From contig JACRMS010000028.1 in the NCBI GenBank assembly GCA_016214845.1, forward strand, positions 16,070 through 80,069: a stretch of DNA of 64,000 bases. Reading direction: 5' to 3'. A model generated the notes under the pieces. It was not told the DNA's origin, searched no databases, and saw only the letters and a list, made by a program, of their open reading frames with translations. Both the position numbers and the translations under genes were made by a program. The stretch is from Nitrospirota bacterium (lineage in GTDB: Bacteria; Nitrospirota; Thermodesulfovibrionia; UBA6902). This document shows positions 1,224 through 63,342 of the stretch, piece after piece. Each line of letters starts with the position of its first letter. Positions within the stretch are counted from its first letter, which is position 1.

Positions 1224-1287
1224 TGTCATGTTTCACTTGTTTCAGCATCTCTTTGTTGATAGACCCTGAAACGAGTTCAGGGTGACA
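1224..1287. repeat. Intergenic palindromic element, family A copy 1 (TGTCATG..CTTGTTTC.GCATCTCT..AGACCCTGAAAC.AGTTCAGGGTGACA)
   Basis: Near-identical to the copy at 2805-2866 and, inverted, to the copy at 3896-3956. It has a GTCA...TGAC outer frame around two short hairpins and lies in the nuoK-nuoL gap. Confidence 0.7.
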
Positions 1288-1325
1288 GTCCGCCAGTCTG
1301 TCCTCTTTGTTCTGTGTTCTGTCAT

Positions 1326-1628
1326 TTACCCTTTCATCAAATTGATCTCATCCACCTTGATAGTGGGGTTGTTCCTGTAAAACGCGATCAGTATCGCCAG
1401 CCCGATCGCGGCCTCGGCAGCCGCGACGGTTATGATGAAAAACACGAGTATCTGCCCTCTCATGGACTGAAGATAATGACTGAACGCCACAAGGCTGATG
1501 TTCACGGAATTCAGCATCAGTTCCAGGGACAGAAATATAAGTATCAAATTACGCCTTGAAAGAAAACCGAACACGCCGATGCTGAACATCACCGCGCTAA
1601 GTAATATGTACCAGCTTAACGGGACCAA
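1326..1628 (-). CDS. nuoK: NADH-quinone oxidoreductase subunit K
   Basis: 100-aa protein with three TM helices and a typical NuoK sequence ([27 protein letters not shown]...). It sits in operon position between nuoJ and nuoL. Confidence 0.9.
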
Positions 1629-1650
1629 TTAAAACCTCCTCATAAAAAAG

Positions 1651-1725
1651 GTAGTCAGTAGTCAGTAGCTGGTAGTCAGGGAAAAAACCGGCCTCCCCCT
1701 TAACTACTAACTACTGACTACTATC
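1651..1725. repeat. Heptamer-tandem hairpin (GTAGTCA x4 / TAACTAC-TGACTAC complement) in the nuoJ-nuoK gap
   Basis: gtagtcagtagtcagtagctggtagtcagg...ttaactactaactactgactactatc. The arms are tandem 7-mers and their reverse complements around an A-rich loop. It may act as a terminator or attenuator. Confidence 0.6.
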
Positions 1726-1731
1726 TACATA

Positions 1732-2247
1732 TTATTCCAGTTTCCTCTTTGCCAAAACTACCGCGCCCACTACTGCTATCAATAAGATCAACGACGCTAT
1801 CTCAAAGGGCAGCAAAAATTCAGAGTATAAGACCTTGCCGACGGTCATCATATGGCCGTCCGATCTTACCGCGTCTATACTGTATGGTCCTAACGGCGGG
1901 ACCACGGTAATCTTGCCGACTATCATAATTAAGAACACCACAAGGACTACGCCGATGCCTATTCCAACAGGCCACTGCTTCTGGAACCTCTTCTCCGTCT
2001 CTTCCTTCCGCAAATTAAGCATCATGATGACAAACAGGAACAGGACAAGTATCGCTCCGGCGTATATTATTATCTGTATGGCGGCCAGAAATTCAGCGTT
2101 CAGGAAAAGGTAAAGCGCCGCGATGTGGGCAAAGAGTATAAGCATATACAAAACGCTGTGGACCGGGTTCTTCCTCGTCACCACCATGAGTGACAATCCT
2201 GTCATCATGACCGCAAAATATACAAAGAACAACTGCGGTGTGCTCAT
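1732..2247 (-). CDS. nuoJ: NADH-quinone oxidoreductase subunit J
   Basis: 171-aa polytopic membrane protein in NuoJ position. Its stop overlaps the nuoI start by 4 nt. Confidence 0.85.
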   Translation of the reverse strand: MSTPQLFFVYFAVMMTGLSLMVVTRKNPVHSVLYMLILFAHIAALYLFLNAEFLAAIQIIIYAGAILVLFLFVIMMLNLRKEETEKRFQKQWPVGIGIGVVLVVFLIMIVGKITVVPPLGPYSIDAVRSDGHMMTVGKVLYSEFLLPFEIASLILLIAVVGAVVLAKRKLE

Positions 2248-3895: not shown

Positions 3896-3956
3896 TGTCA
3901 CCCTGAACCTTGTGCTGAACTTGATTCAGTATTGTTTCAGGGTCTCATGATTAACT
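3896..3956. repeat. Intergenic palindromic element, family A copy 3 (inverted orientation, longer internal loop)
   Basis: tgtcaccctgaacc...gtttcagggtct. Its reverse complement matches agaccctgaaac...gttcagggtgaca of copies 1 and 2. It lies in the nuoG-nuoH gap. Confidence 0.6.
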
Positions 3957-4025
3957 TCTTCTGCATAGATGCTGAAATAAATTCAGCATGACATTTTGCA
4001 TCCATTATAACTTTTAAAAAAACTT

Positions 4026-6590: not shown

Positions 6591-6616
6591 AATTAGTTTA
6601 TAAATTCCATTTTGTC

Positions 6617-6692
6617 TGTCATTCCGGCAGTCCTTAAGCCGGAATCTATTTTTTATTCTCTGGATTCCCGCTCAACAGACTGCGGGAATGAC
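6617..6692. repeat. Intergenic palindromic element, family A subtype with attccggc/attcccgc stems (copy 4)
   Basis: tgtcattccggcagtccttaagccggaat...ggattcccgctcaacagactgcgggaatgac. It shares the GTCA...TGAC outer frame and double-hairpin plan with the copy at 22276-22344. It lies in the nuoF-nuoG gap. Confidence 0.65.
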
Positions 6693-6706
6693 GCAAAGAA
6701 TAAATT

Positions 6707-8439: not shown

Positions 8440-8449
8440 AGTTAAAAAT

Positions 8450-8516
8450 GGGGTTGGGGGTTAGGGATCGGGGATTAGTTTTTTTAACTAACCCCTAATC
8501 CCCAGTCCCTGATCCC
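8450..8516. repeat. G-rich heptamer hairpin, family B copy 1 (GGGGTTG GGGGTTA GGGATCG GGGATTA / complement)
   Basis: ggggttgggggttagggatcggggattag-ttttttt-aactaacccctaatccccagtccctgatccc. It lies in the nuoD-nuoE gap and resembles the copies at 22805-22869 and 59638-59667. Confidence 0.65.
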
Positions 8517-8521
8517 TTCCT

Positions 8522-10342: not shown

Positions 10343-10348
10343 TTTATT

Positions 10349-10380
10349 AGCTATAAGCTGATAGCTGTAAGCTATGAGCT
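10349..10380. repeat. Tandem AGCTNTN heptamers (AGCTATA AGCTGAT AGCTGTA AGCTATG) in the nuoB-nuoC gap
   Basis: Read directly from the sequence. A related AGCT-heptamer tract occurs at 60672-60712. Confidence 0.55.
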
Positions 10381-10382
10381 TT

Positions 10383-10901: not shown

Positions 10902-10912
10902 TTAATGGACCT

Positions 10913-10990
10913 TCGTAATTCGTGATGCGTAATGAGTAATGTGTAATGGATATTTTGTTCAAACACTTTACGCATTACGCTTAACGCTTC
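10913..10990. repeat. Imperfect palindrome built from CGTAATG-type heptamers in the nuoA-nuoB gap
   Basis: gtaattcgtgatgcgtaatgagtaatgtgtaatgga ... ttacgcattacgcttaacgcttcacgg. Confidence 0.55.
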
Positions 10991-10998
10991 ACGGTTTT

Positions 10999-11477: not shown

Positions 11478-11540
11478 ATGAGTAATGCGTTATAAGTTGT
11501 TCTTTGCACCCATTACGCGTTACGCATCACGCGTTACGAT
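11478..11540. repeat. GTAATG/CATTAC heptamer palindrome upstream of nuoA, in the divergent promoter region shared with the kinase gene
   Basis: atgagtaatgcgttataag...cccattacgcgttacgcatcacgcgttacg. It uses the same oligo family as the element at 10913-10990. Confidence 0.5.
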
Positions 11541-11624
11541 TTTTAAAGGCGCTTTATAAGAAAATGAAATCCTTTCATTTTGTCCTTTTAAAAATTTCAA
11601 AAGCATCCTATAATACTCCCCATT

Positions 11625-13603: not shown

Positions 13604-13654
13604 TGAGGAAGGCATCTTTTTCATCCTTCCGCCTTCATCCTTAATTGAAAAAAA

Positions 13655-14447: not shown

Positions 14448-14610
14448 TTTAGATAACAGATAACCACAGAGGACACGGAGATAAAAATAAAACAATCCAC
14501 AGATCTCTCAGATTGCACAGAGTTAGAAAAAACTCCTATTGAAAATCTGTGCAATCTGCGAAATCTGTGGACAATAAAATTCCTCTGTGACCTCTGTGGT
14601 TAATAGTTAA
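14448..14610. repeat. Cluster of CACAGAG/ATCTGTG heptamer and 9-mer repeats forming a long hairpin in front of ORF 14624
   Basis: tccacagatctctcagattgcacagag (14490-14516) is the reverse complement of tctgtgcaatctgcgaaatctgtgga (14547-14572). The same triple AATCTGYGN motif recurs at 22373-22400. Flanking ccacagaggacacggag resembles 61722-61740. Confidence 0.55.
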
Positions 14611-14623
14611 AAGGAGAACCGAT

Positions 14624-14956: not shown

Positions 14957-15105
14957 CATTTGCCACGAATCACACGAATAATCACGAAATATCAGGCCGC
15001 AGATTTTCGCTGATATACGCGGATAAGCTTATTTTCTTAAATCATGATAATTGCTTCTGGTCTTATTTTTTATTTTCATTCGTGTTTATTCGTGTGATTC
15101 GTGGC
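14953..15105. terminator. Long imperfect inverted repeat (CACGAAT heptamers) between convergent genes, a probable bidirectional terminator
   Basis: gccacgaatcacacgaataatcacgaa (14954-14980) against ttcgtgtttattcgtgtgattcgtggc (15069-15095, reverse complement about 90% identical). About 85 nt of AT-rich sequence lies between the arms. Confidence 0.5.
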
Positions 15106-15118
15106 TAAAAAGTCTTTT

Positions 15119-17188: not shown

Positions 17189-17253
17189 AGGATTTGGAAC
17201 AAAGTCTGCACAGGCAGTCAGGCATTTTGCCTGGCTGCCTGTGCAGGATGTTT

Positions 17254-21209: not shown

Positions 21210-21212
21210 CAA

Positions 21213-21295
21213 CAAGTAACTGAAGTTATGAAGTTGAGAGGGTGTGAAGTTGAGACTTCTTATCTTCTCAATTTCTTAACTTCATAACTTCTATA
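21213..21295. repeat. Heptamer-tandem hairpin (GAAGTTA TGAAGTT GAGAGGG TGTGAAG / complement)
   Basis: caagtaactgaagttatgaagttgagagggtgtgaagttgagac...ctcaatttcttaacttcataacttc, between 20445-21209 and 21329-22201. Confidence 0.55.
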
Positions 21296-21328
21296 ATATT
21301 TCTGTATTCTTGAAAGTTAGGGAGGCTT

Positions 21329-22201: not shown

Positions 22202-22275
22202 AAAAATATCCGCAGATGACACAGATGAACACAGATTGTTATTTGGATATTGGATAAATGTGAAACACGAATGTA

Positions 22276-22344
22276 TGTCATTCCCGCAAGTGAAGCGCAT
22301 CGGGAATCCTTCTTAAAGAAAGATTCCGGACAAGCCGGAATGAC
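22276..22344. repeat. Intergenic palindromic element, family A subtype (copy 5)
   Basis: tgtcattcccgcaagtgaagcgcatcgggaatcc...gattccggacaagccggaatgac. It has the same frame and stems as the copy at 6617-6692. Confidence 0.65.
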
Positions 22345-22415
22345 TGATACAGTTTGTAAACAATAAATATTTTATCTGTGAAATCTGCGTAATCTGTGGA
22401 CATAAAGGAGTCAAC

Positions 22416-22799: not shown

Positions 22800-22804
22800 A
22801 AGCA

Positions 22805-22869
22805 GGGCTTAGGGGTCAGGGATTGGGGATTGGTTTTTCACTAACCCCTAAGCCCTAACCCCCAACCCC
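22805..22869. repeat. G-rich heptamer hairpin, family B copy 2
   Basis: gggcttaggggtcagggattggggattgg-ttttt-cactaacccctaagccctaacccccaacccc. It could act as a terminator between 22416 and 22890. Confidence 0.6.
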
Positions 22870-22889
22870 TATTCTCAGAGGAGATTGTA

Positions 22890-31779: not shown

Positions 31780-32664
31780 ATGAAAAAATTGAAACTCAGG
31801 ATCGGCAGGATCCCGTACGCAAACCTTTTCCCGATATTCTACTATCTCGAAAAGCAATGCAATCATTCAGCGTACAGATTTGTCAAAGGCGTTCCTTCAA
31901 AGGTGAATAAAATGCTGCGCGAGGGCAAACTCGACATCAGCCCTTCATCTTCCATTGAATACCTGCGGAACAAGAACAAATACCTTATCGTGCCCTACTC
32001 TTCCATAAGCTCCTCCGGGCCCATCAAAAGCATCCTCCTGTTTTCGAAATACCCGTTAAATGAACTAGGCGGTAAGGCCATTGCGCTGTCATCAGCGTCT
32101 GAAACATCCACCGCGCTCTTGAAAATAATCCTGAAAGAATTCCTCTCGCTAAAATGCAAATTCAAACCCACGGACCACCGCAGCGTCAAAAATATCCTGT
32201 CGACTTTTTCCGCTGTCCTTCACATAGGCGACACGGCGATGCAGGAAGCGAAGAAGACAGAAAACAGAAGACAGAAGACAGAAGACAGAAAAAAGAAAAC
32301 AAATAATAGTCTGGCATCTGAGGTCTGTCTTCTGGGTTCTGAGCCGCTTTTCATCTACGACCTTGGAGAGCTGTGGTTTAAATACACGGGACTTCCATTT
32401 GTGTTTGCCCTGTGGGTTGTAACGAAAGATGCTGTTGAGGAGAAAAAAGAGCTTATCAAAAAACTCTCCTCGGAATTAAGGAACGCAAAAAAGTACGCAG
32501 GTAAAAAATTCCCGCTGATAGCAAAAGACGCCCCTCAAAATAAATGGCTGACGGAAAAAGAACTTATTGACTACTGGAAGACCATCTCCTATGACTTCAC
32601 TGAAAAACACCTTGAGGGCCTGCGGCTGTTCGAGAAGTACGCATTGAAATTATCCGGCAAGTAA
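31780..32664 (+). CDS. MqnA/MqnD-family protein (futalosine-pathway menaquinone biosynthesis, chorismate dehydratase-like) with a low-complexity insertion
   Basis: N-terminus LRIGRIPYANLFPIFYYL...GKLDISPSSSIEYL is typical of the VitK2_biosynth family. It contains the insertion KKTENRRQKTEDRKKKTNNS, encoded by a heptamer repeat. Confidence 0.55.
   Translation: MKKLKLRIGRIPYANLFPIFYYLEKQCNHSAYRFVKGVPSKVNKMLREGKLDISPSSSIEYLRNKNKYLIVPYSSISSSGPIKSILLFSKYPLNELGGKAIALSSASETSTALLKIILKEFLSLKCKFKPTDHRSVKNILSTFSAVLHIGDTAMQEAKKTENRRQKTEDRKKKTNNSLASEVCLLGSEPLFIYDLGELWFKYTGLPFVFALWVVTKDAVEEKKELIKKLSSELRNAKKYAGKKFPLIAKDAPQNKWLTEKELIDYWKTISYDFTEKHLEGLRLFEKYALKLSGK
32258..32292. repeat. (CAGAARA)5 tandem heptamer microsatellite inside the MqnA-like ORF, in frame together with flanking copies
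   Basis: cagaaaa cagaaga cagaaga cagaaga cagaaaa, with c at 32258, 32265, 32272, 32279 and 32286. Confidence 0.8.
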
Positions 32665-42548: not shown

Positions 42549-42650
42549 GTATCCTCACCTCTACCGCATGTTCCTGCCGATCATCAACAAGCGGAATAGC
42601 ATTATCCGACTGCTCAACTCCATTGATGGTCACACTCGTTTCTCCGCTGC
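42549..42650. repeat. Degenerate direct-repeat copy (~82% identical) of the last ~100 bp (3' coding end) of the cgs-like gene at 44376-44477
   Basis: gtatcctcacctctaccgcatgttcctgccgatcatcaacaagcggaatagcattatccgactgctcaac... aligns to 44376-44477 with 18 mismatches in 102 nt. The copy carries stop codons in the corresponding frame. Confidence 0.65.
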
Positions 42651-42715
42651 TTTAAATAATCTTTCTTTGATCTGACGAAAGACTGTAGGATTCTGACGTA
42701 AATCTGACGAATAAA

Positions 42716-44233
42716 CTATTCCTTAAGAACATAGTGGGTTGCCCTCCCGGCCCCCTTCTGTCTGATAAGTTCTAACGCCATGAGTCTCTTGAAGTCTCTA
42801 TTTGCCGTATCTCTTGTAATCCCAAAGGTCTTTGTACATTCCTCGCTGTTTATCCTTGCGTGACCGAGGATGTACTTGAGGATGTCTCTTTGTCTCGTTG
42901 TTAACTGGTTTAGTTTATCGGCGGGGACTTCAAAAACAACATTCAGCTTGCCAGGGTTAACCTTAAGAATATCCTCTGGCCCATGGAATGTGACTGTGAA
43001 ATAACCTGCGTCATAATCAAACATCGGAGGCTTAAGGCCGTAGTTAACCATCATATCGTGCATCCTTTTGAATCCGCCGCCCCTTTCTTCCATGAGTTTC
43101 ACGTCAAACAGGGCTCTGGCTATTATTGGATTCCGGGATACAGGGCGGTACTTAAATGATTTCACCATTTCAAGAGTCAATGGTTGAGGGAGTAGACCAG
43201 GGCTTGCTATCACTATCCTGTTACTAAAAATCTGGATCATCACTGTTGCGCCTGATATTCCATAATCCCTGTGAGCGAGGGCATTTATAACGGCCTCCCG
43301 CAATGCCTCAATAGGATACTCAGAAATCTGCACACGTGAAAAACCCTCAATTCTTGCGGCGGTCTTCATGTTCTTGAGGAAGAATGCCTCAGCATCTTTG
43401 ACCATATTAAAAATAGTGCCTTCCATCTCTTTTTGATCTATTGTGTTTGCCGGTCCAATGCCCTGAAAGGCATCTGCCTTTATCTTACTTTGAGGTAGAT
43501 AGTATTCAGGATGCTTGCCGAATAGAAGCAATCCGGCAACGGTTGGAACTAACAGTTTCTTACTGGGCAAATAATGAAGCATGTTCCTCTTTCTGAGGTG
43601 TTCTGTAATTTCGGCTTTACTTTTTAGTTGGAAGCCAGCCGTCTTAAAAAAGAATTCAGCATCTTTCAAGTAAATGTCATCCAGCAATGCATTCATTATG
43701 GGTTTTTTATCAATATTGAGTGAAGTCTTATCAATATCTGAAATACTTTTTCCAACCGGAAGGTCGACTCCGTGCTCTTTCTTGAGATAATGAACCAGTC
43801 CTTTGCGAATCCAATCCTTCAGCTCTCTGTAATTCTCAAATCTCTTGTAACTATATCCTTTATGTCCCTTGAATTCTTTCAATAACTTTTTGAGATTATC
43901 ATCCCTTTCAGTGTCTGTTTTTCCTTTGAGGAAAACGAGAATATATTTCCCGTCGGCCATTGCCTTTCTATATTCTCTTTCCGTCGGTGAAAGGCCGTCT
44001 TCATCGAGTGTGCCATATTCATTTCCGAATAGGCCGATGTACACATCGCACTCTTTCAGTTTTTCAAGATATGCCGCTCTTGAGGGTACCGCCATAGGAG
44101 GAAACCCTTCCCACATCTCGACATCAAAATAACGGCTGAGAAACTCATTCTCCATAATCGCCTCTTCAACGGCAAGGCGTTCATTCATGAGTTCTTTTAG
44201 GACAGAGCTGATGAATATCTTGATTTTCTTCAT
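42716..44233 (-). CDS. DUF4062 N-terminal domain fused to AlbA_2 (Schlafen-like divergent AAA_4), HATPase_c_4 and C-terminal wHTH
   Basis: N-terminus MKKIKIFISSVLKELMNERLAVEEA...CDVYIGLFGNEYG (DUF4062 pattern). The middle has LLFGKHPEYYLP (AlbA_2). It continues EAVINALAHRDY...IASPGLLP...RNPIIA (HATPase_c_4). The C-terminus is a DNA-binding HTH. Confidence 0.7.
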   Translation of the reverse strand: MKKIKIFISSVLKELMNERLAVEEAIMENEFLSRYFDVEMWEGFPPMAVPSRAAYLEKLKECDVYIGLFGNEYGTLDEDGLSPTEREYRKAMADGKYILVFLKGKTDTERDDNLKKLLKEFKGHKGYSYKRFENYRELKDWIRKGLVHYLKKEHGVDLPVGKSISDIDKTSLNIDKKPIMNALLDDIYLKDAEFFFKTAGFQLKSKAEITEHLRKRNMLHYLPSKKLLVPTVAGLLLFGKHPEYYLPQSKIKADAFQGIGPANTIDQKEMEGTIFNMVKDAEAFFLKNMKTAARIEGFSRVQISEYPIEALREAVINALAHRDYGISGATVMIQIFSNRIVIASPGLLPQPLTLEMVKSFKYRPVSRNPIIARALFDVKLMEERGGGFKRMHDMMVNYGLKPPMFDYDAGYFTVTFHGPEDILKVNPGKLNVVFEVPADKLNQLTTRQRDILKYILGHARINSEECTKTFGITRDTANRDFKRLMALELIRQKGAGRATHYVLKE

Positions 44234-44358
44234 GTTATCGTTTGTAAAATGTAACAGATTTCAGCAGGAGTTTACAATTACAATAAATCTAAAACTCAGG
44301 GGGCTATGGTGTTGCGGTACCTGCGTAGTTCTGGGCCGTAGAGCAGCCGCATCAAAAG

Positions 44359-53001: not shown

Positions 53002-53022
53002 GTTTAAGGTCTCCTTATGAGA

Positions 53023-53052
53023 AGTAGGGGCGTATTGCCATACGCCCCTACT
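53023..53052. promoter_or_regulatory. AGTAGGGGCG...CGCCCCTACT palindrome (variant of 35951-35980) immediately upstream of the cgs-like start
   Basis: agtaggggcgtattgccatacgcccctact. It lies in the 5' leader if the start is TTG 53001, or in codons 7-16 if the start is ATG 53070. Confidence 0.4.
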
Positions 53053-53371
53053 CATTAAATGGAATAGCAATCAGGGTGGTGTTTGACTGTTCCTCCATGG
53101 TGGCCGGTGTTATGTTGTAGTGTTATCATTATAGCAGAATAGCAGATTGCTATCTTGAAAGCTGCGGTCCGAAGGGGCGAACAGCCCGTCCGGCGCTGGT
53201 AGTGGGTCAGTTTGAAATTTGAGGGGAAATTAAAAAGTTATTTACATTCTTCAAGATATTTAAAATAGTCAGAACGACTCATTTTTGCTGTATGCATCAA
53301 GTTAATAATAATATCTTCATCCCGGCGCTGCCCTCTTTGAAATTTCTCGCAATAGAGTTTAATCTATCCTG

Positions 53372-53704
53372 ATGGCAAAACCTGAATTTGAACAGTTCGG
53401 AATAACGAAAGAACAGTTTGATTCCATTTACGCAAAAAAAGAAAAAATTCGGAATTACACTTTCGGGATTAGTTCAGCAGCCGGCATCCTTGCGGGATGT
53501 ATGTACGGCATATACCTGTCGTATGGTGTTTATGAAACTATATTGTTTATTCTCTTCTTCGGCTGCTTCCTCGGCAGTATCTTCGGAGGGGTCTTCACCA
53601 TGATCGTAATTGCGCTGTATGTCTTTCTCCTCTATATCTTCTCCCCGGCCTACAGAAGATGCAGACAATATCTCGCCGCAAAATCCAAAGCGAGGCCAGC
53701 TTAA
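53372..53704 (+). CDS. Small membrane protein (hypothetical)
   Basis: 110 aa with two or three TM helices after a soluble N-terminus. No recognisable family. Confidence 0.3.
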   Translation: MAKPEFEQFGITKEQFDSIYAKKEKIRNYTFGISSAAGILAGCMYGIYLSYGVYETILFILFFGCFLGSIFGGVFTMIVIALYVFLLYIFSPAYRRCRQYLAAKSKARPA

Positions 53705-53860
53705 CATCAGACAATTGCAAGGTTAGCCCCTCTATCTTTTTTTCTTCTTGAAAAGTAAACGGTTACATAGTTATGATATTGCATAACCTAATTTAAACTT
53801 TTTAATCAGAGGGGACTGTTGAATTCAATACTTGCCATGCATATTTTTAATATTAATTAA

Positions 53861-53914
53861 AGTTCCCAAATAGTGAACTTTTAACTTGACATGATAATGG
53901 GAACTTTATTATAT
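53861..53914 (+). promoter_or_regulatory. Putative sigma70-type promoter (TTGACA-17-TTATAT) with two AAGTTCCC-type operator half-sites upstream of higB
   Basis: TTGACA at 53886-53891, then 17 nt, then ttatat at 53909-53914. Inverted repeat agttcccaaatagtgaact at 53861-53879 and gggaacttt at 53898-53906 overlap the -35 to -10 spacer. This is the expected layout for HigA autorepression. Confidence 0.35.
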
Positions 53915-53958
53915 TATTTACATGGAAGGTAGATTTCACAAGTTAATAAGGAAACTGA

Positions 53959-54243
53959 ATGACGTTAGTAGGCCGGGAAAAACTATACCAGTTCATTACC
54001 AAGCATCCAGATACTCGTAGTTTGATAGAGAATTGGATAGCAGATGTTCAAAACGCTAACTGGCAAAACACACAGGATGTCAAGGATCGATATTCAAGCG
54101 CCAGTTTCTTGGCTGATAGAATAGTGATCTTTAATGTAAGAGGTAATAGTTATAGGCTTGAGGTCCAAATTGCTTATAAAACCAAAAAGGTCATTGTGAA
54201 ATGGGCAGGGACACATGCTGAGTATTCAAAAAGATTTAAGTAG
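53959..54243 (+). CDS. higB: HigB-family (YgjN-like) RelE/ParE-superfamily toxin
   Basis: IFNVRGNSYRLEVQIAYKTKKVIVKWAGTHAEYS aligns to E. coli HigB VFNVGGNELRVVAMVFFESQKCYIREVMTHKEYD. Length 94 aa. Confidence 0.75.
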   Translation: MTLVGREKLYQFITKHPDTRSLIENWIADVQNANWQNTQDVKDRYSSASFLADRIVIFNVRGNSYRLEVQIAYKTKKVIVKWAGTHAEYSKRFK

Positions 54244-54258
54244 CTCTAACCAGGACAA

Positions 54259-55464
54259 ATGAAAATGGAACCGAAAATTATTAAAACAGAAATAAATTAC
54301 AAACAAACGCTCGCCGAAGTCGAACGCTTAATCGCGCTCGATCCTGAACCAGGAACTCCGGAAGCGGACCGTTTGGATTTATTTTCATTGCTTGTAGAAA
54401 ATTATGAAAAAGAACATTTCCTCTTCAATTTACCAAGCCCTATAGATGCAATCAACTTTAGAATTGAAGAGCAGGGATTGAAACAAAAAGACTTGATTCC
54501 ATATATTGGCAGCAAAAGCAAGGTTTCTGAAGTATTATCCGGGAAACGGCCTCTGACTATTCAAATGATTAGAGAGCTTCATAAAGGTTTAGACATACCC
54601 GCTGAAGTTTTACTGCAAGATATCCATAAGCCAAAAACAAACAAGTCGTTTGAAAAAGATTGGAATAAATTTCCAGTTAAAGAAATGGTTAAGCGTGGCT
54701 GGATTACCACAAAATATCGTGATTTGGATGCTCATGCAGAAGAGTTAATGAAGCAGTTTTTCGCTCCTCTGGGGGGTGAAATTCCGAGCGTTGCAATTTG
54801 CCGGCGTACAATACACAAAAGGGCTAAGCAAGAGACAGATATGAATGCTCTTTTAGTATGGACCGCCCGCGTAATGATCAGGGCACATGAAGAATGTTGC
54901 CCGTCAGAATTTTTTCCTGGGACTGTGACAAAAGATTTCTTGAGAGAGGTTGCTCGGTTAAGTTGTTTTGATAAAGGCCCATTATTAGCCAAAGAATTTT
55001 TAGAGAAACATGGCATAGCCCTCATTATCGAGCCACATTTACCCAAGACATTACTTGATGGTGGTTCAATGCTAACAGATGCTGGCGGGCCAGTAATAGG
55101 GCTTACTATCCGACATGATCGGATCGATAATTTCTGGTATACACTTGTTCATGAGTTATTGCATGTGGCTAAACACCTGAAGAATGCGGAGGAAATATTT
55201 ATTGATGATCTTTATTCCGAATCCGGGGAAGATCCTAAAGAAAAGGAAGCAGATAGATTAACAAAAGAAACATTCATTCCACGCTCAATATGGATTAGGA
55301 GCGATGCTTATCTTAAAAGAAGTCCTGGCGCGATCATACAACTTGCAAAAGAATTGCGAATTCACCCTGCGATCGTTGCAGGCAGAATTCGTTGGGATAC
55401 AGGGAATTATACGCTTTTCAATCAATTAATTGGACAAGGTGAAGTCAAGAAATTATTCATATAA
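54259..55464 (+). CDS. higA: HigA-type HTH antitoxin fused to an ImmA/IrrE-family (COG2856) zinc metallopeptidase domain
   Basis: N-terminal IGSKSKVSEVLSGKRPLTIQMIRELHKGLDIPAEVLL matches E. coli HigA (IGSKSMVSRVLSGKRKLTLEHAKKLATRFGISPALF). The C-terminal 280 aa carry HEXXH (VHELLHVAKH) and a downstream EADRLTKE, typical of ImmA/IrrE peptidases. Confidence 0.7.
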   Translation: MKMEPKIIKTEINYKQTLAEVERLIALDPEPGTPEADRLDLFSLLVENYEKEHFLFNLPSPIDAINFRIEEQGLKQKDLIPYIGSKSKVSEVLSGKRPLTIQMIRELHKGLDIPAEVLLQDIHKPKTNKSFEKDWNKFPVKEMVKRGWITTKYRDLDAHAEELMKQFFAPLGGEIPSVAICRRTIHKRAKQETDMNALLVWTARVMIRAHEECCPSEFFPGTVTKDFLREVARLSCFDKGPLLAKEFLEKHGIALIIEPHLPKTLLDGGSMLTDAGGPVIGLTIRHDRIDNFWYTLVHELLHVAKHLKNAEEIFIDDLYSESGEDPKEKEADRLTKETFIPRSIWIRSDAYLKRSPGAIIQLAKELRIHPAIVAGRIRWDTGNYTLFNQLIGQGEVKKLFI

Positions 55465-55490
55465 GGATTTAAGAATTTTGGTGAATTAAA

Positions 55491-55853
55491 ATGTTTGACT
55501 ATAATCATTATGTTCCAATACTAAAAGCAAAAGATGGTGAATTCGGTGCGTTATTAGAACTTCCGGAAGAAATCAAGAGCAGAATAACTCCATTAATTGA
55601 TATCTTTAATTCTGAATCCGAAATTTCATTAGAAAAGCGTCTGATTAAAATTGCACATAAAATAGAAACTTCATGGGGAAATACTCGCCCTATTTTTATA
55701 GACCCATTCGGGATTAACTTGAAAGAACGAGTTTTGGGAGGCAAACATCCTTTAACCTTTATTTTTGACCTCTTGAGAAAGCTTAATATCAAGGCTATTC
55801 CATTAACGGGATTTGAGAGAGATGAGGCTCTTATACCTAAAGACTGGCTCTAA
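55491..55853 (+). CDS. Hypothetical protein in the AT-rich islet with higBA
   Basis: 120-aa ORF with a plausible RBS and no recognisable family. Confidence 0.3.
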   Translation: MFDYNHYVPILKAKDGEFGALLELPEEIKSRITPLIDIFNSESEISLEKRLIKIAHKIETSWGNTRPIFIDPFGINLKERVLGGKHPLTFIFDLLRKLNIKAIPLTGFERDEALIPKDWL

Positions 55854-55968
55854 GCTATTGCTGACATCCTCCTCAAAAACCTACTAATACATATCTTGAA
55901 CAACAAGGAGTCTTGCATCTTGAATTCTAAAAAAGATCAAACATATGGAAGCGTGAAAGAGCCATGCT

Positions 55969-56826
55969 TTATATCTTTTCAAGCTCCTGGTTCCTGATCC
56001 ACCCGCTCTTGCCGTCGAATCTCTCTACTTTGCTCCAGTCGTGTTTTGATTCGAGGATGAAGATCTTCATGCCTTCATAGAGGGTGAAATGTGTGGTGGC
56101 GTTATCCAGCGGTTCAAATTTTGCCTCCGCGTTTTTTGAAACGACAATCGCCTCGCTGTCAAGCACCATCACCCTGCTGTACAAAGAGAACGTGCTTAAC
56201 AGAAAAATTACCGATAGAACGCCAAGCATTATCAGCAAATATCTTTTGACAGCAGGGAAGAAAATGATCGCGATAAAGATCGCCAAGATCAAAACGTACA
56301 CAGCGGATACGAATATGGTCAACCCGTTTATTGTTAGACCGCTGAATATGCCCGATATCTTTTCTGTCATTGACGCGGAGGACTGCTGCCCGGTATTTTC
56401 CGTTCTCGACAGGGCGTAATTATAATTTGATCTCAGGTCGCTGTCGTCCGGCATAAGTCTCTTTGCCCTTTCATAATTTAAGATGGCCCTGCCCGTCTCA
56501 CCTTTTTTGAAATAACTGTTTCCGAGATTGAAATATAGATTTCCGCTTTCAACCCCCTGAGCAAGCAGTCTGGAGTACTCCCTTATAGCCTCATCATATT
56601 TGCCGCTCTCATAAAGCTGGTTGCCGTTTTTAAAGATGGATGACGGGTCGTTATCCGCGAAAGCACCTGAGACAAGAGACGCTATGAAAGCAAGCAGAGC
56701 AAGGAAAATTATTACCCGCAAAGTCCCCCTCTCCCTGACCCTCTCCCGAAAGAGGCGAGGGAATTTAACTTCCACGCTTTTGAACTTTTGCTCTTTAGCT
56801 CTTTTGTGCTTCTGCACTTCTCTCAC
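55969..56826 (-). CDS. batE: BatE-like TPR membrane protein with C-terminal SH3-like domain
   Basis: TM, TPR repeats (NLGNSYFKKGETGRA...), a second TM and a C-terminal beta-rich tail. It is the last gene of the Bat operon. Confidence 0.6.
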   Translation of the reverse strand: MREVQKHKRAKEQKFKSVEVKFPRLFRERVRERGTLRVIIFLALLAFIASLVSGAFADNDPSSIFKNGNQLYESGKYDEAIREYSRLLAQGVESGNLYFNLGNSYFKKGETGRAILNYERAKRLMPDDSDLRSNYNYALSRTENTGQQSSASMTEKISGIFSGLTINGLTIFVSAVYVLILAIFIAIIFFPAVKRYLLIMLGVLSVIFLLSTFSLYSRVMVLDSEAIVVSKNAEAKFEPLDNATTHFTLYEGMKIFILESKHDWSKVERFDGKSGWIRNQELEKI

Positions 56827-58784: not shown

Positions 58785-59627
58785 TTACCAATCCTTCTGC
58801 ACCTCTTCTGAATGCCCTCTTCTCTCGCGGTTAAAAACATCTCCAGACTCTTCCTCGCCATAGGCGTCAAGCAGCATCCTTGCCTCCTCCGGTGACATCT
58901 CCTGTGTCTTCTGTCCGGCTTTGTCGTGGGCCTTGGCTTCTTTACCTTTTTCTGCCGCAGACTTTTTGTCCTTGTCGTCGGTTGTCCCTGTCTGTTCGTT
59001 CCCGGACTTTTGCTGCTGCTTGTCCCCCTGCTTATCCTTGTCTGACTTTGCCTCCGGTCCCTTGCCTTCCTTATCTTTCTTGTCCTGCCCTTTGTTCTGC
59101 TGCTGTTGAGGCTGGTTTTTCATTTTTTCCTGTAGGGCCTTTATTTTCTTTTCCACAAGCTCACGGTTATATTCTGCGTCCTTATCGCTCTTATCCATTT
59201 CCAATGCCCGCTTGTAATAGTCAAGAGACTCCTGATATAAATTGATCGCTCCATTGGCATCGGAGTTTTCCATGAGGCTGCCGAGTTTGTACTTGCTGTT
59301 GGCCATATTATACAATGCGCCTTCCTCAATTTTTTTATCTCCGGCGCTCATTGCCTTTGTAAATGCTTCAACAGCCTCTTGATACCTGCCCTTTTTATAA
59401 AGCGCTGTGCCGAGGTCGAAATTTACAATGTCCGAGTCAGGCGCTTCCGCCTTTGCCTCATTGTATTTTTCCATCGCCCCGTCGTATCTATCCTGATGAT
59501 ATAATTTATTCCCCTCCCTGACCGCCTTCGCAGGAGAGGCAAAGACAGGAGAAGTGAAGATTAAACAGAGTAATATGAACAAAAGAAATTTTCTCATAAT
59601 TTTTTTGTTGTCGCGATCTTTAGTCAT
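58785..59627 (-). CDS. batC: BatC-like TPR protein with Lys/Gln/Asp-rich low-complexity tail
   Basis: Signal peptide, three or four TPRs, then KDKEGKGPEAKSDKDKQGDKQQQ low-complexity region. Confidence 0.6.
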   Translation of the reverse strand: MTKDRDNKKIMRKFLLFILLCLIFTSPVFASPAKAVREGNKLYHQDRYDGAMEKYNEAKAEAPDSDIVNFDLGTALYKKGRYQEAVEAFTKAMSAGDKKIEEGALYNMANSKYKLGSLMENSDANGAINLYQESLDYYKRALEMDKSDKDAEYNRELVEKKIKALQEKMKNQPQQQQNKGQDKKDKEGKGPEAKSDKDKQGDKQQQKSGNEQTGTTDDKDKKSAAEKGKEAKAHDKAGQKTQEMSPEEARMLLDAYGEEESGDVFNRERRGHSEEVQKDW

Positions 59628-60667
59628 GCTTTCTTAGCCAATCCCTGATCCCTAACCCCTGATCCCTTATTCTTTCTCCTCTCCCTGATAAACGGTTCGA
59701 TACAGAGCAGCAGTAGCGCCAGCGCAAGAGGAATCTGAAATTTCTCATTATACCTTTTTACCATTTTGTTCTCGATGTCCCTTCTCTCCATCTTCGACAG
59801 TTTCTCATCATAGATCAGGTCCAGGCCGAATTCGGTGTTCGTCGCCCTGATATAACTGCCGCCTGTTGTTAATGCGATCTTCTGTAAGGTGTCCTCATCC
59901 AGGCGTGACTTGACCACATTCCCGCTGCTGTCTTTTAAAAATTCCCTGTGGCCGGCCTCATCGGTAACGGGGATAAGTTCGCCTTCTCTTGTGCCTATTC
60001 CGATGGTGAAAATTTTAATGCCGTCTTCCTTTGCCTTTTCAGCCCATTTGACAGCGTCACCCTCAAGGTCTTCTCCGTCGGAGATGATCACCAGCGTCTT
60101 ATATTTTTTCTTGCCGCCCTCGTAACTATCAAGCGCCACCCTGATCGCGTTTGAAATTGATGTGCCGCCTTTTGGTATTGTGTAGACGTTGATGTCGTCG
60201 AGAGAGAGCATGAACCCGGTGTAATCCGAGGTCAGCGGGCATTGTAAAAACGCGTTCCCCGCAAAGGCGATAAGCCCAAGCCTGTCGCCCTGCAGTTTCT
60301 TTATCAGGTCCTTGACAGCAAGCTTTGAACGCTCCAGCCTGTTTGGCTTTACGTCTTCGGCCAACATGCTCTTTGAGGTGTCAAGCGCGATCAATATATC
60401 AAGCCCGCTTCTCTTTACCTCTTTCCATTCAAAACCCCACTGCGGCCTCATGAGTGAAATTATAATTAAAAAAATTGAAATCATTATGAAAGCCGCCTTA
60501 AGCCTCTGCGTCCGCTTGTTCAGAGAAGAAGTCAGTTCATCAAGGAGTTCCTTCTGCGCAAACCTCTCCATGTCCCTCTTTCTCTTTCTGTACGCCCAGA
60601 GATAAAAAATGACGAGGCCCGCCAAAAGCCACAGGAAATGCATCGCATGTAAGTTACCGAATTTCAT
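59624..60667 (-). CDS. batB: BatB-like von Willebrand factor A (vWA) domain protein
   Basis: Two N-terminal TM helices and a vWA MIDAS motif (DTSKSM ... the ISDGED block). Its 3' end contains a one-arm G-rich heptamer tract (59638-59667) encoding GSGVRDQGLA. Confidence 0.75.
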   Translation of the reverse strand: MKFGNLHAMHFLWLLAGLVIFYLWAYRKRKRDMERFAQKELLDELTSSLNKRTQRLKAAFIMISIFLIIISLMRPQWGFEWKEVKRSGLDILIALDTSKSMLAEDVKPNRLERSKLAVKDLIKKLQGDRLGLIAFAGNAFLQCPLTSDYTGFMLSLDDINVYTIPKGGTSISNAIRVALDSYEGGKKKYKTLVIISDGEDLEGDAVKWAEKAKEDGIKIFTIGIGTREGELIPVTDEAGHREFLKDSSGNVVKSRLDEDTLQKIALTTGGSYIRATNTEFGLDLIYDEKLSKMERRDIENKMVKRYNEKFQIPLALALLLLCIEPFIRERRKNKGSGVRDQGLAKKA

Positions 60668-60711
60668 ATTCTATACAGCTGTAAGCTATTAGCTGAAAGC
60701 AATCAGCTAAT

Positions 60712-61773
60712 TTACGGTATCCTCCTTAGCACAGTATTATTCAAGACAACCTCAAGGAGCAGCAGGGCCAGGCCGGGAATCAGGAAGAGGTAAAACAGCT
60801 CTTCATATTCGGCATAGCCTTTCTCCTCGATACGCGATTTTTCCAGCTTGTCGATCTCTCCGTAAATATTTCTCAATGAGCCGGTGTCCGTGGCCCTGAA
60901 ATATTTCGCGCGGGTCTTCTCAGCGATACTTTTTAAAAGCTCCTCATCAATCTCTATCTTTACGTTCCTGTAGACCTTATTGCCGAACATGTCTTTCGCG
61001 GGGAAAGGCACAAGCCCTTTTGTGCCCGCGCCGATGGTATAGACTTTTATATTCAGGGCTCCCGCAGCCTCTGCCGCGGTAAGAGGGGAAATCTTTCCGG
61101 CATTGTTTATCCCGTCGGTCAGCAGGATGACGATCTTGCTTTTGGCCTTTGTGTCCTTCAACCTGTTCAGCGCGGAGCTGATGCCTGAGCCGATCGCGGT
61201 GCCGTCCTCGATTACGCCGACCTCTATCCTGTCCAAGTTCTGAAGCAGCCATCCGTGATCAAGCGTAAGCGGCGCCGCTGTATAAGCCCTTCCGGCAAAT
61301 GCCACTATGCCGATCCTGTCGTCAGGACGGTTTTTGATAAACTCTCTCACTACGTCCTTGACCACATCAACCCTGCTCGCGCGCCTGACCCCGAGTTCAA
61401 AATCCTCAGCAAGCATAGTGGTTGATACGTCGATCACCAGAACAATGTCTATTCCTTCTCTCTCGATCTTTGATTCCTGCGATATCAACTGGGGCCTTGC
61501 CAACGCGAAGATTATCAGAAAAAGCGCGGCGGTCCTCAGGATGAAAATGTTGCTGTGCAATTTTATTTTAAAAGTCGCCCGCAGGTTTTTTACAAGTTCT
61601 CCAGTTGAAAATTGTAATGCGGGCTGCGGCTGTCTTCTCCTGATGAAAAAAATGAGAGCGGCAGCAACCGGCAGTAATATCAAAACCCACGGATTCTGAA
61701 AGTGCATAAGCTCCTTATTTTTTAACCACAGAGAACACGGGGAAAAATAGAAGATGAGAAGTTGGGAAATCAA
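60712..61773 (-). CDS. batA: BatA-like vWA domain protein
   Basis: N-terminal TM, vWA domain with MIDAS motif (DVSTTM, LTDGINN) and a C-terminal TM. Confidence 0.75.
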   Translation of the reverse strand: MISQLLIFYFSPCSLWLKNKELMHFQNPWVLILLPVAAALIFFIRRRQPQPALQFSTGELVKNLRATFKIKLHSNIFILRTAALFLIIFALARPQLISQESKIEREGIDIVLVIDVSTTMLAEDFELGVRRASRVDVVKDVVREFIKNRPDDRIGIVAFAGRAYTAAPLTLDHGWLLQNLDRIEVGVIEDGTAIGSGISSALNRLKDTKAKSKIVILLTDGINNAGKISPLTAAEAAGALNIKVYTIGAGTKGLVPFPAKDMFGNKVYRNVKIEIDEELLKSIAEKTRAKYFRATDTGSLRNIYGEIDKLEKSRIEEKGYAEYEELFYLFLIPGLALLLLEVVLNNTVLRRIP

Positions 61774-61827
61774 GAAGATGCGGAAGGACAGTTTTGCTTT
61801 TTCTCAGCTTCATATCTTCTTGTCCTC

Positions 61828-62376
61828 TCAACTTCTTTTAATCTCTGTGCCCTCTGTGGTTGATTTCAGGATTTCCTTTGTCTCGTCAACAAACCTCTTT
61901 GCTGAATCGTAACTGGCCTCAGCCTCTTTTTCTCCAGGCAGATATTTCGCGAACTTCACCATATCGCAGCGCGAGAGAAAATCTTTCAGGAGGCCCTGCT
62001 GTCCGGTTGTTAAAGTCTTTGAATCTTTCAACGTGATCAGAAACTCTTCGGTAGTCATCTCCGGCGCGCGGAGATGAAAACGGTCCTCCACGTAATATCT
62101 AACAATGTTTGAAAGCTCAAAATAAAATTCCCGCACCCTGCCGCTCTTTAAATAATTCTTATTCATAAGTTCTTTCAGCGCCTCATAGGCTGTCTCATGC
62201 GCTGGTTTCAGCGGTATGACCGTTTCTTTCACTTTTCTTTTTTTCTTCCTGAAAAATTTAAAGAGGAGGACCGCGATGATTATGATCGCGAGTATGGCGA
62301 GAAGAATATAAAGATATTCCCAGCCCGGAAAACTCAGAGGCCCTTTGATGTCACGGATGTCTCCTTCGCCGTTCAT
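61828..62376 (-). CDS. DUF4381-like small membrane protein of Bat operons
   Basis: One TM (YLYILLAILAIIIIAVLLF) followed by a KKKRK stop-transfer. It sits between the DUF58 gene and batA, as in canonical Bat operons. Confidence 0.5.
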   Translation of the reverse strand: MNGEGDIRDIKGPLSFPGWEYLYILLAILAIIIIAVLLFKFFRKKKRKVKETVIPLKPAHETAYEALKELMNKNYLKSGRVREFYFELSNIVRYYVEDRFHLRAPEMTTEEFLITLKDSKTLTTGQQGLLKDFLSRCDMVKFAKYLPGEKEAEASYDSAKRFVDETKEILKSTTEGTEIKRS

Positions 62377-62382
62377 GCCTGA

Positions 62383-63258
62383 TTAAATCCTCCGCTCCCT
62401 CATCCTGAAAAATCTGTAAAGCTCCCTGTCATAAGGGACGTCCGTGCGGATGTCTATGTGGTCAACGTTTATCGAGCGCAGGAGTTTCCGCCTTTCCTCA
62501 AACATCTTGACCGCGTTTGCGTGATACTCATTTCTCAATGCGAAACTTGATGTATCAAGCAGGCTACTCTCACCCGTCTCAGCGTCCTCAAGGCGCACAA
62601 TGCCTATGTCCGGCAAGTCAATTTCCCTTGGGTCTGTAACTGAGATGGCAACAACATCATGCCGTTTATTGGCGGTAGACAAAGACATTTTGTAATCCTT
62701 CGCGTAAAAATCCGAGATCACAAAAGTGATCGTGCGGCGTGTTATGACCCTGTTAAGATACTCCAGCGCAGCGGTAATATTTGTGCCCTTTTCCTCCGGC
62801 TCATAATACAGCGCCTCCCTGATTATCCTGAGCACATGGCTCAGCCCTTTCCTTGGAGGCACGAATTTCTCTATCTTATCGGTGAAGATAATAAGCCCGA
62901 CCTTATCGTTATTTTTAACTGCGGAAATTGCTAACAGGGAACACAATTCAGCGGACAGATGCCTCTTGAGTTTCTTGACCGTTCCGAAAAACGAGGACCC
63001 CGACATGTCCAGGAGAAGCATGATGGTCAGCTCTCTCTCTTCCATAAATTTCTTTATGAAAGGATGCCCCATTCGCGCGGTCACATTCCAGTCAATCGAG
63101 CGGATGTCATCGCCGGGCTGGTATTCCCTGACCTCCTCGAACTCCATGCCCCTGCCTTTGAACACACTATGGTACTGCCCGGCAAATACGTCCGTGACCA
63201 TCCGTGAAGTGGTTATCTGTATCCTGCGTATTTTTTTGAGTATTTCCTTAGGGATCAT
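62383..63258 (-). CDS. DUF58-domain protein (MoxR-partner, vWA-like)
   Basis: 291 aa with FKGRGMEFEEVREYQPGDDIRSIDW, the hallmark DUF58 N-terminal motif. Confidence 0.75.
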   Translation of the reverse strand: MIPKEILKKIRRIQITTSRMVTDVFAGQYHSVFKGRGMEFEEVREYQPGDDIRSIDWNVTARMGHPFIKKFMEERELTIMLLLDMSGSSFFGTVKKLKRHLSAELCSLLAISAVKNNDKVGLIIFTDKIEKFVPPRKGLSHVLRIIREALYYEPEEKGTNITAALEYLNRVITRRTITFVISDFYAKDYKMSLSTANKRHDVVAISVTDPREIDLPDIGIVRLEDAETGESSLLDTSSFALRNEYHANAVKMFEERRKLLRSINVDHIDIRTDVPYDRELYRFFRMRERRI

Positions 63259-63271
63259 TTATATATCAAGG

Positions 63272-63342
63272 ATCAAAGGTACAAAGGCACAGAGGCACAA
63301 AGTGTATTAATAGTCTTTGTGCCTTTGCTCCTTTGTGCCTGA
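63272..63342. repeat. Heptamer-tandem hairpin (CAAAGGT ACAAAGG CACAGAG GCACAAA / complement) between moxR and the DUF58 gene
   Basis: tcaaaggtacaaaggcacagaggcacaaag-tgtattaatagt-ctttgtgcctttgctcctttgtgcctga. Confidence 0.55.

Follow-up and report, generated by a model that had tools for sequence, protein, structure and literature searches.

Tandem heptanucleotide arrays with the potential to form intercistronic hairpins in an uncultured Nitrospirota bacterium

Why should the spacers of several operons in one bacterial genome be occupied by a few imperfect copies of a very short unit, mostly followed by their own reverse complement, and what maintains them there? The question is raised by the window, as the whole 64,000-nucleotide stretch of contig JACRMS010000028.1 (GenBank assembly GCA_016214845.1) analysed here will be called, for which an initial annotation had reported hairpins built from tandem heptamers in nearly every intergenic gap. 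The host is an uncultured member of the Nitrospirota, class Thermodesulfovibrionia, whose NuoD is 89-90% identical to that of metagenome-assembled genomes (MAGs) of this group from groundwater and the subsurface; in the same context two Logan contigs (runs SRR12113395 and SRR12113396) are 100% matches. The elements are found in the nuo operon, which extends on the minus strand from nuoA at 11370 down to nuoL at position 1, and in two further operons, one at 20.4-27.2 kb (the NuoE/F/G-like cluster) and one at 56-64 kb (the bat/moxR cluster). They represent an addition, in a new phylum, to a known but poorly understood kind of repeat, and they are noteworthy for this reach across phyla and for the fact that individual gaps are either conserved or replaced between sister genomes.

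The arrays are real and statistically strong, overwhelmingly non-coding, and dominated by a period of 7 nt. A lag scan requiring at least 14 matches in an 18-position window recovered 10 arrays of period 7 from the 6.2 kb between genes, compared with 0.07 in dinucleotide shuffles, and two in 57.8 kb of coding DNA; at other lags the non-coding DNA yielded no array for 4-6 nt, three for 8 nt and two for 9 nt. Tandem Repeats Finder (TRF) placed period-7 arrays at 1651/1701, 10345, 10925, 11513, 22819/22841, 32252 and 59641, and arrays with periods of 8-10 nt at 14543, 14964, 15078, 21255, 22213, 22374, 56777 and 63274, all of them imperfect with 72-93% matches. While period 7 prevails overall, as the initial annotation proposed, roughly half of the sites that it described as heptameric have longer periods, namely 9-10 nt for the CACAGAK and CACGAAT types and 8 nt for GAAGTTR (21255) and CAAAGGN (63274). 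Among the 38 gaps of at least 25 nt, arrays of 7-9-nt units occupy about 11 by the strict rule and 15-16 by eye, rather than nearly all. By the strict rule, 11 of the 28 native gaps hold an array versus one of the 10 gaps in a low-GC island (35.6-44.4 and 53-56 kb, on either side of a gene for a 2,903-aa GH94 glucan-synthase-like protein), and this near-absence suggests that acquired DNA is free of heptamer arrays. At least eight unit families are present in the window. The gaps do use many different units, but several units recur, including GGGRTYA (8446, 22803 and 59641), AGCTNNN (10343 and 60668), CGTAATG (10905 and 11478) and CACAGAN (at least five sites). The original observation was genuine and correctly spotted but over-generalised.

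Most arrays are paired with their own reverse complement, and some are unpaired. The commonest layout is a purine- or G-rich array, a loop and then a complementary array, by virtue of which a transcript of either strand would fold into a long stem broken by single mismatches. Arms with 77-93% complementarity were detected by an inverted-repeat scan at 1646/1698, 8457/8495, 10914/10963, 14454/14583, 14496/14543, 14959/15079, 21222/21258, 22804/22838, 32258/32310, 61757/61814 and 63277/63309. Some of the loops are short, as first described, but the spacers range from 0 to ~130 nt and three hairpins enclose others (14448-14612, 22205-22400 and 61720-61865). When 15 candidate hairpins were folded as sense RNA with 200 shuffles each, 14 folded well, with energies of -11.2 to -66.2 kcal/mol and z-scores of -2.7 to -12, and one (13604-13654) gave a weak, unconvincing fold (z -1.1). 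The two outcomes named in the initial annotation as refuting it, a period-7 content no higher than in shuffled or coding sequence and arms that pair poorly, are thus both contradicted. In the nuo gaps a median of 5 nt separates the stop codon of the preceding gene from the base of the stem and a median of 11 nt separates the stem from the following start codon, and the element occupies essentially the whole spacer. Of 45 heptamer hairpins, 41 have a purine-rich 5' arm, and in 37 of 43 this arm contains more G than C, with the same result for both strands. Arm chirality was considered as a special property and rejected, as non-periodic perfect hairpins display a weaker trend of the same sign (28 versus 12); the bias is therefore not peculiar to the heptamer hairpins, in which it is more pronounced. 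Very many loops seem to consist of 5-7 consecutive A or T, as in TTAAAAAAAC, GGTTTTTCAC and CAGTTTTTTAGC; such loops are found at 8478-8486, 22833-22840 and 1680-1690, and also in the nuoD-E gaps of two related genomes (L001 and L002) and of the sister genome (L081) that is compared with the window below.

It is plausible, with a probability of roughly 0.6, that these are elements of the short tandemly repeated repetitive (STRR) type, made of a 7-nt (sometimes 8-9-nt) unit that is present in three to six imperfect copies, located in the short spacers of native operons and acting as intercistronic mRNA structures. They may have originated by replication slippage or duplication that is independent of sequence and favours steps of 7 nt, with the second arm supplied by inverted duplication or template switching, and may then have spread by copying between loci of one genome. 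Within polycistronic nuo, NuoEFG-like and bat transcripts, the hairpins would form intercistronic structures that impede 3'-5' decay or serve as sites of processing and could thereby determine the relative stability of transcript segments, and by shortening the distance between a stop codon and the following start they may also favour translational coupling. Such a role is suggested by position, stability and conservation, as well as by analogy to repetitive extragenic palindromic (REP) sequences and to selective RNA processing and stabilisation, by which intergenic stem-loops are reported to set subunit stoichiometry (PMC4423207). Comparable roles have been proposed for STRR hairpins and demonstrated for REPs and other stem-loops between genes.

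In cyanobacteria, heptamer repeats have been noted for 35 years. STRRs can reportedly lie inside a functional gene, an example being that of RNase P RNA, to judge by the title of a 1997 article by Vioque, and an in-frame insert in the mqnA gene of the window is comparable. In heterocystous cyanobacteria (Anabaena, Nostoc, Calothrix) the repeats have a 7-bp unit, are tandem, imperfect and intergenic with several families per genome, and include inverted pairs able to form hairpins inside operons, as between hupS and hupL, where raised transcript stability or translation coupling has been proposed (PMC2670836). The window arrays likewise consist of tandem 7-nt units (with a minority of 8-10 nt), are dispersed at many loci, nearly all in non-coding DNA, belong to several families and form inverted hairpins in operons. 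However, the original host range of STRRs is the heterocyst-forming cyanobacteria, for which reason the window arrays are termed STRR-like and not STRRs in the strict sense. They also differ in that the hairpin is the majority configuration, that they are low-copy (3-6 units) and degenerate, that the classical STRR1-3 heptamers are not enriched, and that gaps are conserved or replaced between sister genomes, a pattern that to our knowledge is unreported for STRRs.

Similar repeats occur outside this group. GGGAATC repeats are present in Xanthomonas and GGGGAYT repeats in Nostoc, some as inverted pairs (convergent in Xanthomonas); heptamers are over-represented in bacteria generally, and the only published idea on the 7-nt preference is slippage or the footprint of the replicative polymerase (PMC4692102). 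TAACTGA repeats are known from Beggiatoaceae, Cyanobacteria and Bacteroidetes (PMC4679880), and reporter-gene evidence from Nostoc indicates that heptamer repeats influence the expression of recF and recO (10.1101/2022.06.06.494920). These repeats resemble the window arrays in being intergenic, near start or stop codons, and in differing in length and sequence from one close relative to the next between the same two genes (PMC4692102, PMC4679880), and the GGGRTYA family of the window is similar to the G-rich type. In those studies, however, one heptamer dominates each genome and most repeats are direct (one inverted case in 170 in Beggiatoa), whereas many heptamers coexist in the window and inverted pairs dominate. 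As most units in the window are not G-rich, G-quadruplex formation is no general explanation. A literature search found no description of heptamer repeats for Nitrospirota, and no match to the curated Rfam covariance models was obtained at the gathering score on either strand of the whole window; yet the view that the elements belong to no described class does not hold, given the heptanucleotide tandem repeats of cyanobacteria, Xanthomonas, Beggiatoaceae and Bacteroidetes.

Two other systems share features with the window elements. Rickettsia palindromic elements are hairpin-forming repeats inserted in frame into protein genes and tolerated as an extra surface segment; they recall the mqnA insert (32245-32345), but exist as 100-150-bp copies of few conserved families and not as tandem heptamers. 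REPs are all copies of a single conserved, imperfect palindrome of 20-40 bp that bears an unpaired tag, GTAG or CGTC, and are linked to REP-associated tyrosine transposases (RAYTs), whereas the heptamer hairpins lack a common sequence and are internally periodic. In E. coli, REPs are established as transcript stem-loops that stabilise upstream mRNA. REPs, bacterial interspersed mosaic elements and hairpin-forming REP doublets (REPINs) resemble the elements of the window in their intercistronic location in operons, their species-specific families at conserved positions, their inverted doublets and their occasional intragenic occurrence (PMC3733652).

The evolution of the elements can be followed by comparison with the sister genome (GCA_016213945.1), found through its identical NuoK, whose nuo genes have 93.4% nucleotide identity to those of the window (6.6% divergence, rising to 17.8% at four-fold sites). 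Three gaps, nuoA-B and nuoB-C with heptamer hairpins and nuoF-G with a REP-like doublet, are near-identical, with 2 differences in 253 nt (0.8%), both outside the stems (binomial P=5e-19 versus the four-fold rate); the shared hairpins are identical including loops and mismatches. The hairpin-free nuoC-D gap is only ~80% identical. Five gaps (D-E, G-H, H-I, J-K and K-L) contain entirely different elements in the two genomes, with the adjoining 50-nt coding windows 96-100% identical. Since the sister states at D-E (AGCTGNN) and J-K (ATTCAAG) are also present in more distant genomes, the window states at these two gaps are derived. Some hairpins are thus conserved ~20-fold more strongly than neutral positions, and others are exchanged completely between genomes that are 94% identical, which argues for real constraint on established hairpins, for a turnover driven by replacement and not by gradual drift or frequent slippage of units, and for some copying between loci. 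A classical transposon that recognises a single sequence does not fit the pattern. Two further possibilities were rejected: simple sequence repeats of contingency loci (phase variation), in view of the 72-93% matches and of unit numbers that are identical despite the four-fold divergence, and cassette swaps by homologous replacement from a divergent donor, in view of coding flanks that remain 96-100% identical right up to the gaps.

A survey of 80 related genome loci (1.32 Mb) yielded 151 arrays at lag 7, compared with 41, 50 and 38 at lags 6, 8 and 9. Of 280 nuo gaps of 35-200 nt, 106 were periodic, 76 of them with period 7 and 21 with period 8. The orthologous nuo gaps of 13 relatives have the same architecture as in the window but different heptamers; at nuoD-E, for instance, the units are GGGRTTA, CAGCTGT, GTTGTTA, ATTTCAA, CAGTTGK and GGTNATA, and some genomes have compact empty gaps. 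As many as 103 distinct consensus heptamers were counted among 169 arrays, and heptamers are shared (at most one mismatch) by 16% of site pairs within a genome versus 7.8% between genomes (permutation p ≤ 0.0005). In one relative (L004), four nuo gaps contain GTTGTTA arrays with an identical pair of unit variants, and in another (L005) the 8-mer GGGTTCAA recurs at five. The (GGGTTCAA)n arrays have a conserved centre, AGTGA..TCACTTGA in five species and AGTGA-loop-TCACTTGAACCC in at least six, and occupy different nuo gaps in each of the carriers L005, L007, L012, L015, L019 and L020; they behave like a dispersed family and not like independent local expansions. With different heptamer hairpins in the same nuo gaps of dozens of genomes, this lineage supplies comparable data at high density, which makes selection on the elements, their turnover rate and their origin by slippage versus copying testable.

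Arrays are also present in more distant lineages, which made up most of the matches to a metagenome query with NuoK, only three being close relatives. On contigs whose NuoK is no more than 75% identical, period-7 arrays reach a density of 9.3 per 100 kb and clear hairpins occur, an example being (GACGATT)n..(AATCGTC)n of contig L109, and in clusters formed at 90% identity the distant NuoK proteins belong to those labelled Verrucomicrobiia, Candidatus Kapabacteria and Blastocatellia. The arrays are therefore confined neither to one genome nor to one phylum, in keeping with the published over-representation of heptameric repeats in many bacteria (PMC4692102). A heptamer vocabulary common to several phyla was rejected, as STRR1-3, GGGGATT, GGGAATC, TAACTGA and TTTTGAA are not above shuffled-heptamer controls (lowest p 0.08).

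The heptameric periodicity reported for coding DNA at 32258 was confirmed and represents an in-frame insertion of ~33 aa in mqnA (chorismate dehydratase; PF02621 over residues 6-288), consisting of (AGAAGAC)x7 and a partial complement. Orthologues of the same class have 0 to ~40 extra residues exactly between IGDTAMxEAKK and LYIYDLGELW (alignment A1). The site is hypervariable, other arrays found there being (CACAGAA)x12 in L085, GAGTCAG/CTCAAAA in L086 and GAGTCAR in L087. In the window the array starts within the native codons GAA GCG AAG AAG, which suggests local seeding, and some growth of arrays in situ is plausible on the strength of this start and of the different arrays that orthologues have at the same codon position.

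Several observations weigh against the STRR-like explanation. The arrays shared with the sister genome have identical unit numbers, with no copy-number (±7 nt) difference, and thus give no sign of ongoing slippage. In the 106 periodic nuo gaps the sense strand folds no more stably than the antisense strand (mean -20.4 versus -19.7 kcal/mol; Wilcoxon p=0.15), so that nothing points to selection on RNA rather than on DNA; on the same difference of 0.7 kcal/mol, which provides no evidence of G.U-based selection for the mRNA strand, strand asymmetry at the RNA level was rejected. Identity that includes the loops exceeds a purely structural need and could reflect protein binding, concerted evolution or recent transfer. 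Finally, whole-gap replacement and recurrence within genomes are more easily reconciled with an element that moves or is copied than with slow growth in situ. The slippage in situ proposed by the initial annotation is consequently retained in part, for the apparently locally seeded mqnA array, and not for heptamers that recur within the genome or for gaps that are swapped whole.

The alternative that survives best, although rather unlikely, is that these are small non-autonomous mobile elements similar to miniature inverted-repeat transposable elements, REPINs or the small dispersed repeats of cyanobacteria, with arms that are incidentally periodic. A trans-acting enzyme would copy them into gene boundaries and existing loops, and families would replace one another. 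This would readily account for the change of family at five nuo gaps between near-identical flanks, the recurrence of one family at several gaps in L004 and L005, the conserved centre of the GGGTTCAA family in several species, the nested elements at 14448, 22205 and 61720, the in-frame insertion in mqnA and the scarcity of arrays in the low-GC island. However, a single recognition sequence is implausible with 103 consensus heptamers among 169 arrays, and neither target-site duplications nor conserved termini were recognised by eye. Nor was a Y1_Tnp, RAYT or other transposase domain found by a Pfam scan of 50 of the 52 called open reading frames (ORFs) of the window, which left out the truncated nuoL at the window edge and a rejected overlapping ORF at 22313-22750. 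In addition, construction from 7-nt units has no obvious reason in a mobile element, unpaired arrays occur, and the mqnA array was apparently seeded from local codons.

More doubtful is the possibility that a dedicated process, independent of sequence and working in steps of 7 nt in several phyla, builds arrays at gene boundaries and swaps whole cassettes, the products being kept by strong purifying selection. The G- or purine-rich arm would be made first and the complementary array second. If this were true, the arrays would represent an undescribed class of functional intercistronic element and not neutral debris of slippage, and phylogenetic profiling against array density would be a way to discover the machinery or a binding partner.

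It is quite improbable that the arrays are primarily phased sites for a binder that contacts ~7 nt per monomer, with the hairpin form being secondary. Candidates would be cold-shock-domain, S1-like or CsrA-like proteins, as proposed for the TAACTGA repeats, or a nucleoid or regulatory DNA-binding protein. Binding of CspB to heptamer repeats with one protein per heptamer has been proposed (PMC4679880), and the existence of a factor that binds heptamers has been postulated for Nostoc (10.1101/2022.06.06.494920). The identity of shared hairpins, loops included, against 18% difference at neutral sites would be in keeping with such a binder, as would the purine-richness of unpaired arrays on the sense strand (54 of 69 nuo gaps). 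More than 100 heptamers, however, argue against one sequence-specific binder; a conserved core within the heptamer was rejected, since mismatches are scattered over the columns of the unit as expected by chance (p=0.36); within a hairpin most arrays would be in double-stranded form; and the heptamers known from other phyla are not enriched beyond composition-matched controls.

Least tenable is the proposal of the initial annotation that the hairpins, for example those between nuo genes, are Rho-independent terminators or attenuators tuning read-through within operons, since a U-tract (five or more U among the 8 nt that follow the stem in the sense orientation) is present in only 5% of the 73 periodic nuo-gap hairpins of the window and the 80 related genomes, a consensus terminator scan flagged no nuo hairpin on the minus (sense) strand, the stems are 25-40 nt long and mismatched with loops of up to ~130 nt, unlike canonical terminators, one hairpin lies within the mqnA coding sequence, and those of the nuo operon stand between subunit genes of one obligate complex. 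The stable stem-loops are all located directly 3' of stop codons, and those of nuoJ-K (U6) and nuoD-E (U5) are exceptions with a sense-strand U-run that could terminate leakily, but the identification of the heptamer hairpins as ordinary terminators is not supported.

The individual STRR-like elements of the nuo operon all lie on the minus strand. The nuoK-nuoL gap has an unpaired purine-rich CAGAACA array right after the nuoK stop (1297..1322; TRF period 7 at 1304-1322, and the lag scan). In the nuoJ-nuoK gap there is a GTAGTCA/TGACTAC hairpin (1646..1733; TRF 1651-1679 and 1701-1728; inverted repeat I1 with 36-nt arms, 78% complementary) with an inner GC stem, followed by the U6 run and the nuoK Shine-Dalgarno sequence (-43.4 kcal/mol, z -6.4). 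The nuoD-nuoE gap carries a GGGRTYA/TRAYCCC hairpin (8446..8521; I19; -35.7 kcal/mol, z -3.6) where the sister genome has its AGCTGNN hairpin. An AGCTNNN x5 array fills the nuoB-nuoC gap (10343..10382; TRF 10345-10380; -11.2 kcal/mol, z -2.8); it is self-complementary through its palindromic AGCT core and differs from the sister genome at 0 of 40 nt. The CGTRAWG/CATTACG hairpin of the 97-nt nuoA-nuoB gap (10905..10998; TRF 10925; I7; -26.7 kcal/mol, z -5.1) is identical in the sister genome, both differences in this gap being outside the stem, and a second hairpin of the CGTAATG family is located in the divergent gap upstream of nuoA (11478..11545; TRF 11511-11538, periods 7 and 14; -21.1 kcal/mol, z -2.7).

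Between the nuo operon and mqnA, nested hairpins of the CACAGAN family occur on the plus strand at 14448..14612 (I5 and I9; TRF period 9; -66.2 kcal/mol, z -12), with outer arms AACCACAGAGGACACGGAG/CTCTGTGACCTCTGTGGTT around an inner hairpin with 29-nt arms. They are followed between convergent genes by CACGAAT-type arms of 30 nt, 93% complementary and 90 nt apart, with no strand assigned (14959..15108; I2; TRF period 9-10; -53.5 kcal/mol, z -7.8). A near-perfect 19-bp hairpin with CAGGCAG-like units in the response-regulator/DUF4382 gap (17205..17247, minus strand; I21; -35.1 kcal/mol, z -7.7) is weakly periodic and was missed by the strict lag rule, and its membership of the class is uncertain. 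On the plus strand, two response-regulator fusion genes are separated by a GAAGTTR/YAACTTC hairpin of period 7-8 (21212..21296; TRF 21255-21292, period 8; I3 and I8; -35.8 kcal/mol, z -6.5), CACAGAT/ATCTGTG arms surround a REP-like doublet, GTCATTCCCGC...CCGGAATGAC (22205..22400; TRF 22213 and 22374, and the sequence itself), and a second GGGRTTR/YAACCCC hairpin occupies the gap between a small NuoE-like and a NuoF-like gene (22803..22872; TRF 22819 and 22841; I25; -35.2 kcal/mol, z -3.1). The mqnA array (32245..32345, plus strand) was recovered by TRF at 32252-32301 with a score of 72 and as I6, I12 and I16 (-32.5 kcal/mol, z -6.2).

In the bat/moxR cluster the elements are again on the minus strand. 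Unpaired arrays are found at the batD/batE junction, as a purine-rich 8-mer, AGCAAAAG (56776..56811; TRF 56777-56806, period 8), and at the batB/batC junction, as GGGRTYA x4 (59641..59667; TRF over the same interval, period 7, and the translation). A second AGCTNNN array fills the batA-batB gap (60668..60711; TRF 60676-60708, period 14; -14.3 kcal/mol, z -2.7). Nested hairpins at 61720..61865 (I15; -52.5 kcal/mol, z -5.6) have outer CACAGAG arms, with the same termini as at 14460, around an AGAAGWT-type hairpin, and a CAAAGGNA/TNCCTTTG hairpin of period 8 lies in the moxR-like/DUF58 gap (63262..63345; TRF 63274-63302, period 8; I4 and I10; -31.3 kcal/mol, z -5.5). The last ~12 residues of the BatB-like ORF are encoded by the GGGRTYA array (59624-59667), and the nominal TTG start of ORF 60712-61773 is inside the nested hairpin (61720-61773); as these ORFs run into arrays, the annotated gene ends are probably distorted. 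Arrays can thus mislead gene callers, since ORFs extend through a stop-free arm, as at 59641 and 61773, and they risk being confused with terminators or with small-RNA or CRISPR-like features.

The window also contains palindromic elements that are a class apart from the heptamer hairpins. The sites at 1224, 2805 and 3896, described initially as ACCCTGA-type heptamers, lack tandem periodicity and turned out to be REP-like palindrome doublets. Such doublets, consisting of two short hairpins in inverted orientation (GTCAYSCYGAAC..GTTYCRG or GTCATTCCCGC..GCGGGAATGAC), are located at 1224-1290, 2805-2866, 3896-3992, 6609-6705 and 22280-22350, and many related MAGs contain elements like them; between the window and the sister genome the copy at 6591-6706 shows 100% identity, although its flanks show only 92-94%. 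GTAG-tagged palindromes of REP type, CAGTAGGGGCG...CGCCCCTACTG, occur at 35950-35981 and 53012-53063; the GTAGGGGCG hairpin at these two sites fits the definition of a REP and is also found in nuo gaps of L001, L003, L005, L006 and L008.

Some features of the neighbouring genes may also be mentioned. The low-GC segments (38-43%) at 35602-44358 and 53071-55968 have large gaps and defence- or mobile-looking genes, encoding a DUF1016 nuclease-like protein, a 1,035-aa protein with Metallophos and TPR domains, a DUF4062 and HATPase_c_4 protein, a HigB toxin and a Beta_protein. The 2,903-aa ORF between them (44359-53070, minus strand) has GH94 supersandwich and catalytic domains together with a glucoamylase-like domain, resembles cyclic beta-1,2-glucan synthases, and has a GC content of 54-57%, far higher than that of the adjoining DNA. 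Upstream of the NuoE/F/G-like cluster, two unusual fusions join a response-regulator receiver to a GcvH-like domain (20445-21209) and to a NuoE-type 2Fe-2S thioredoxin-like domain (21329-22201). In the nuo operon itself, nuoE and nuoF are only 5 nt apart in the window, versus an additional gene of ~96 aa, coiled-coil or apolipoprotein-like, between them in the sister genome (3459-3749) and in L004.

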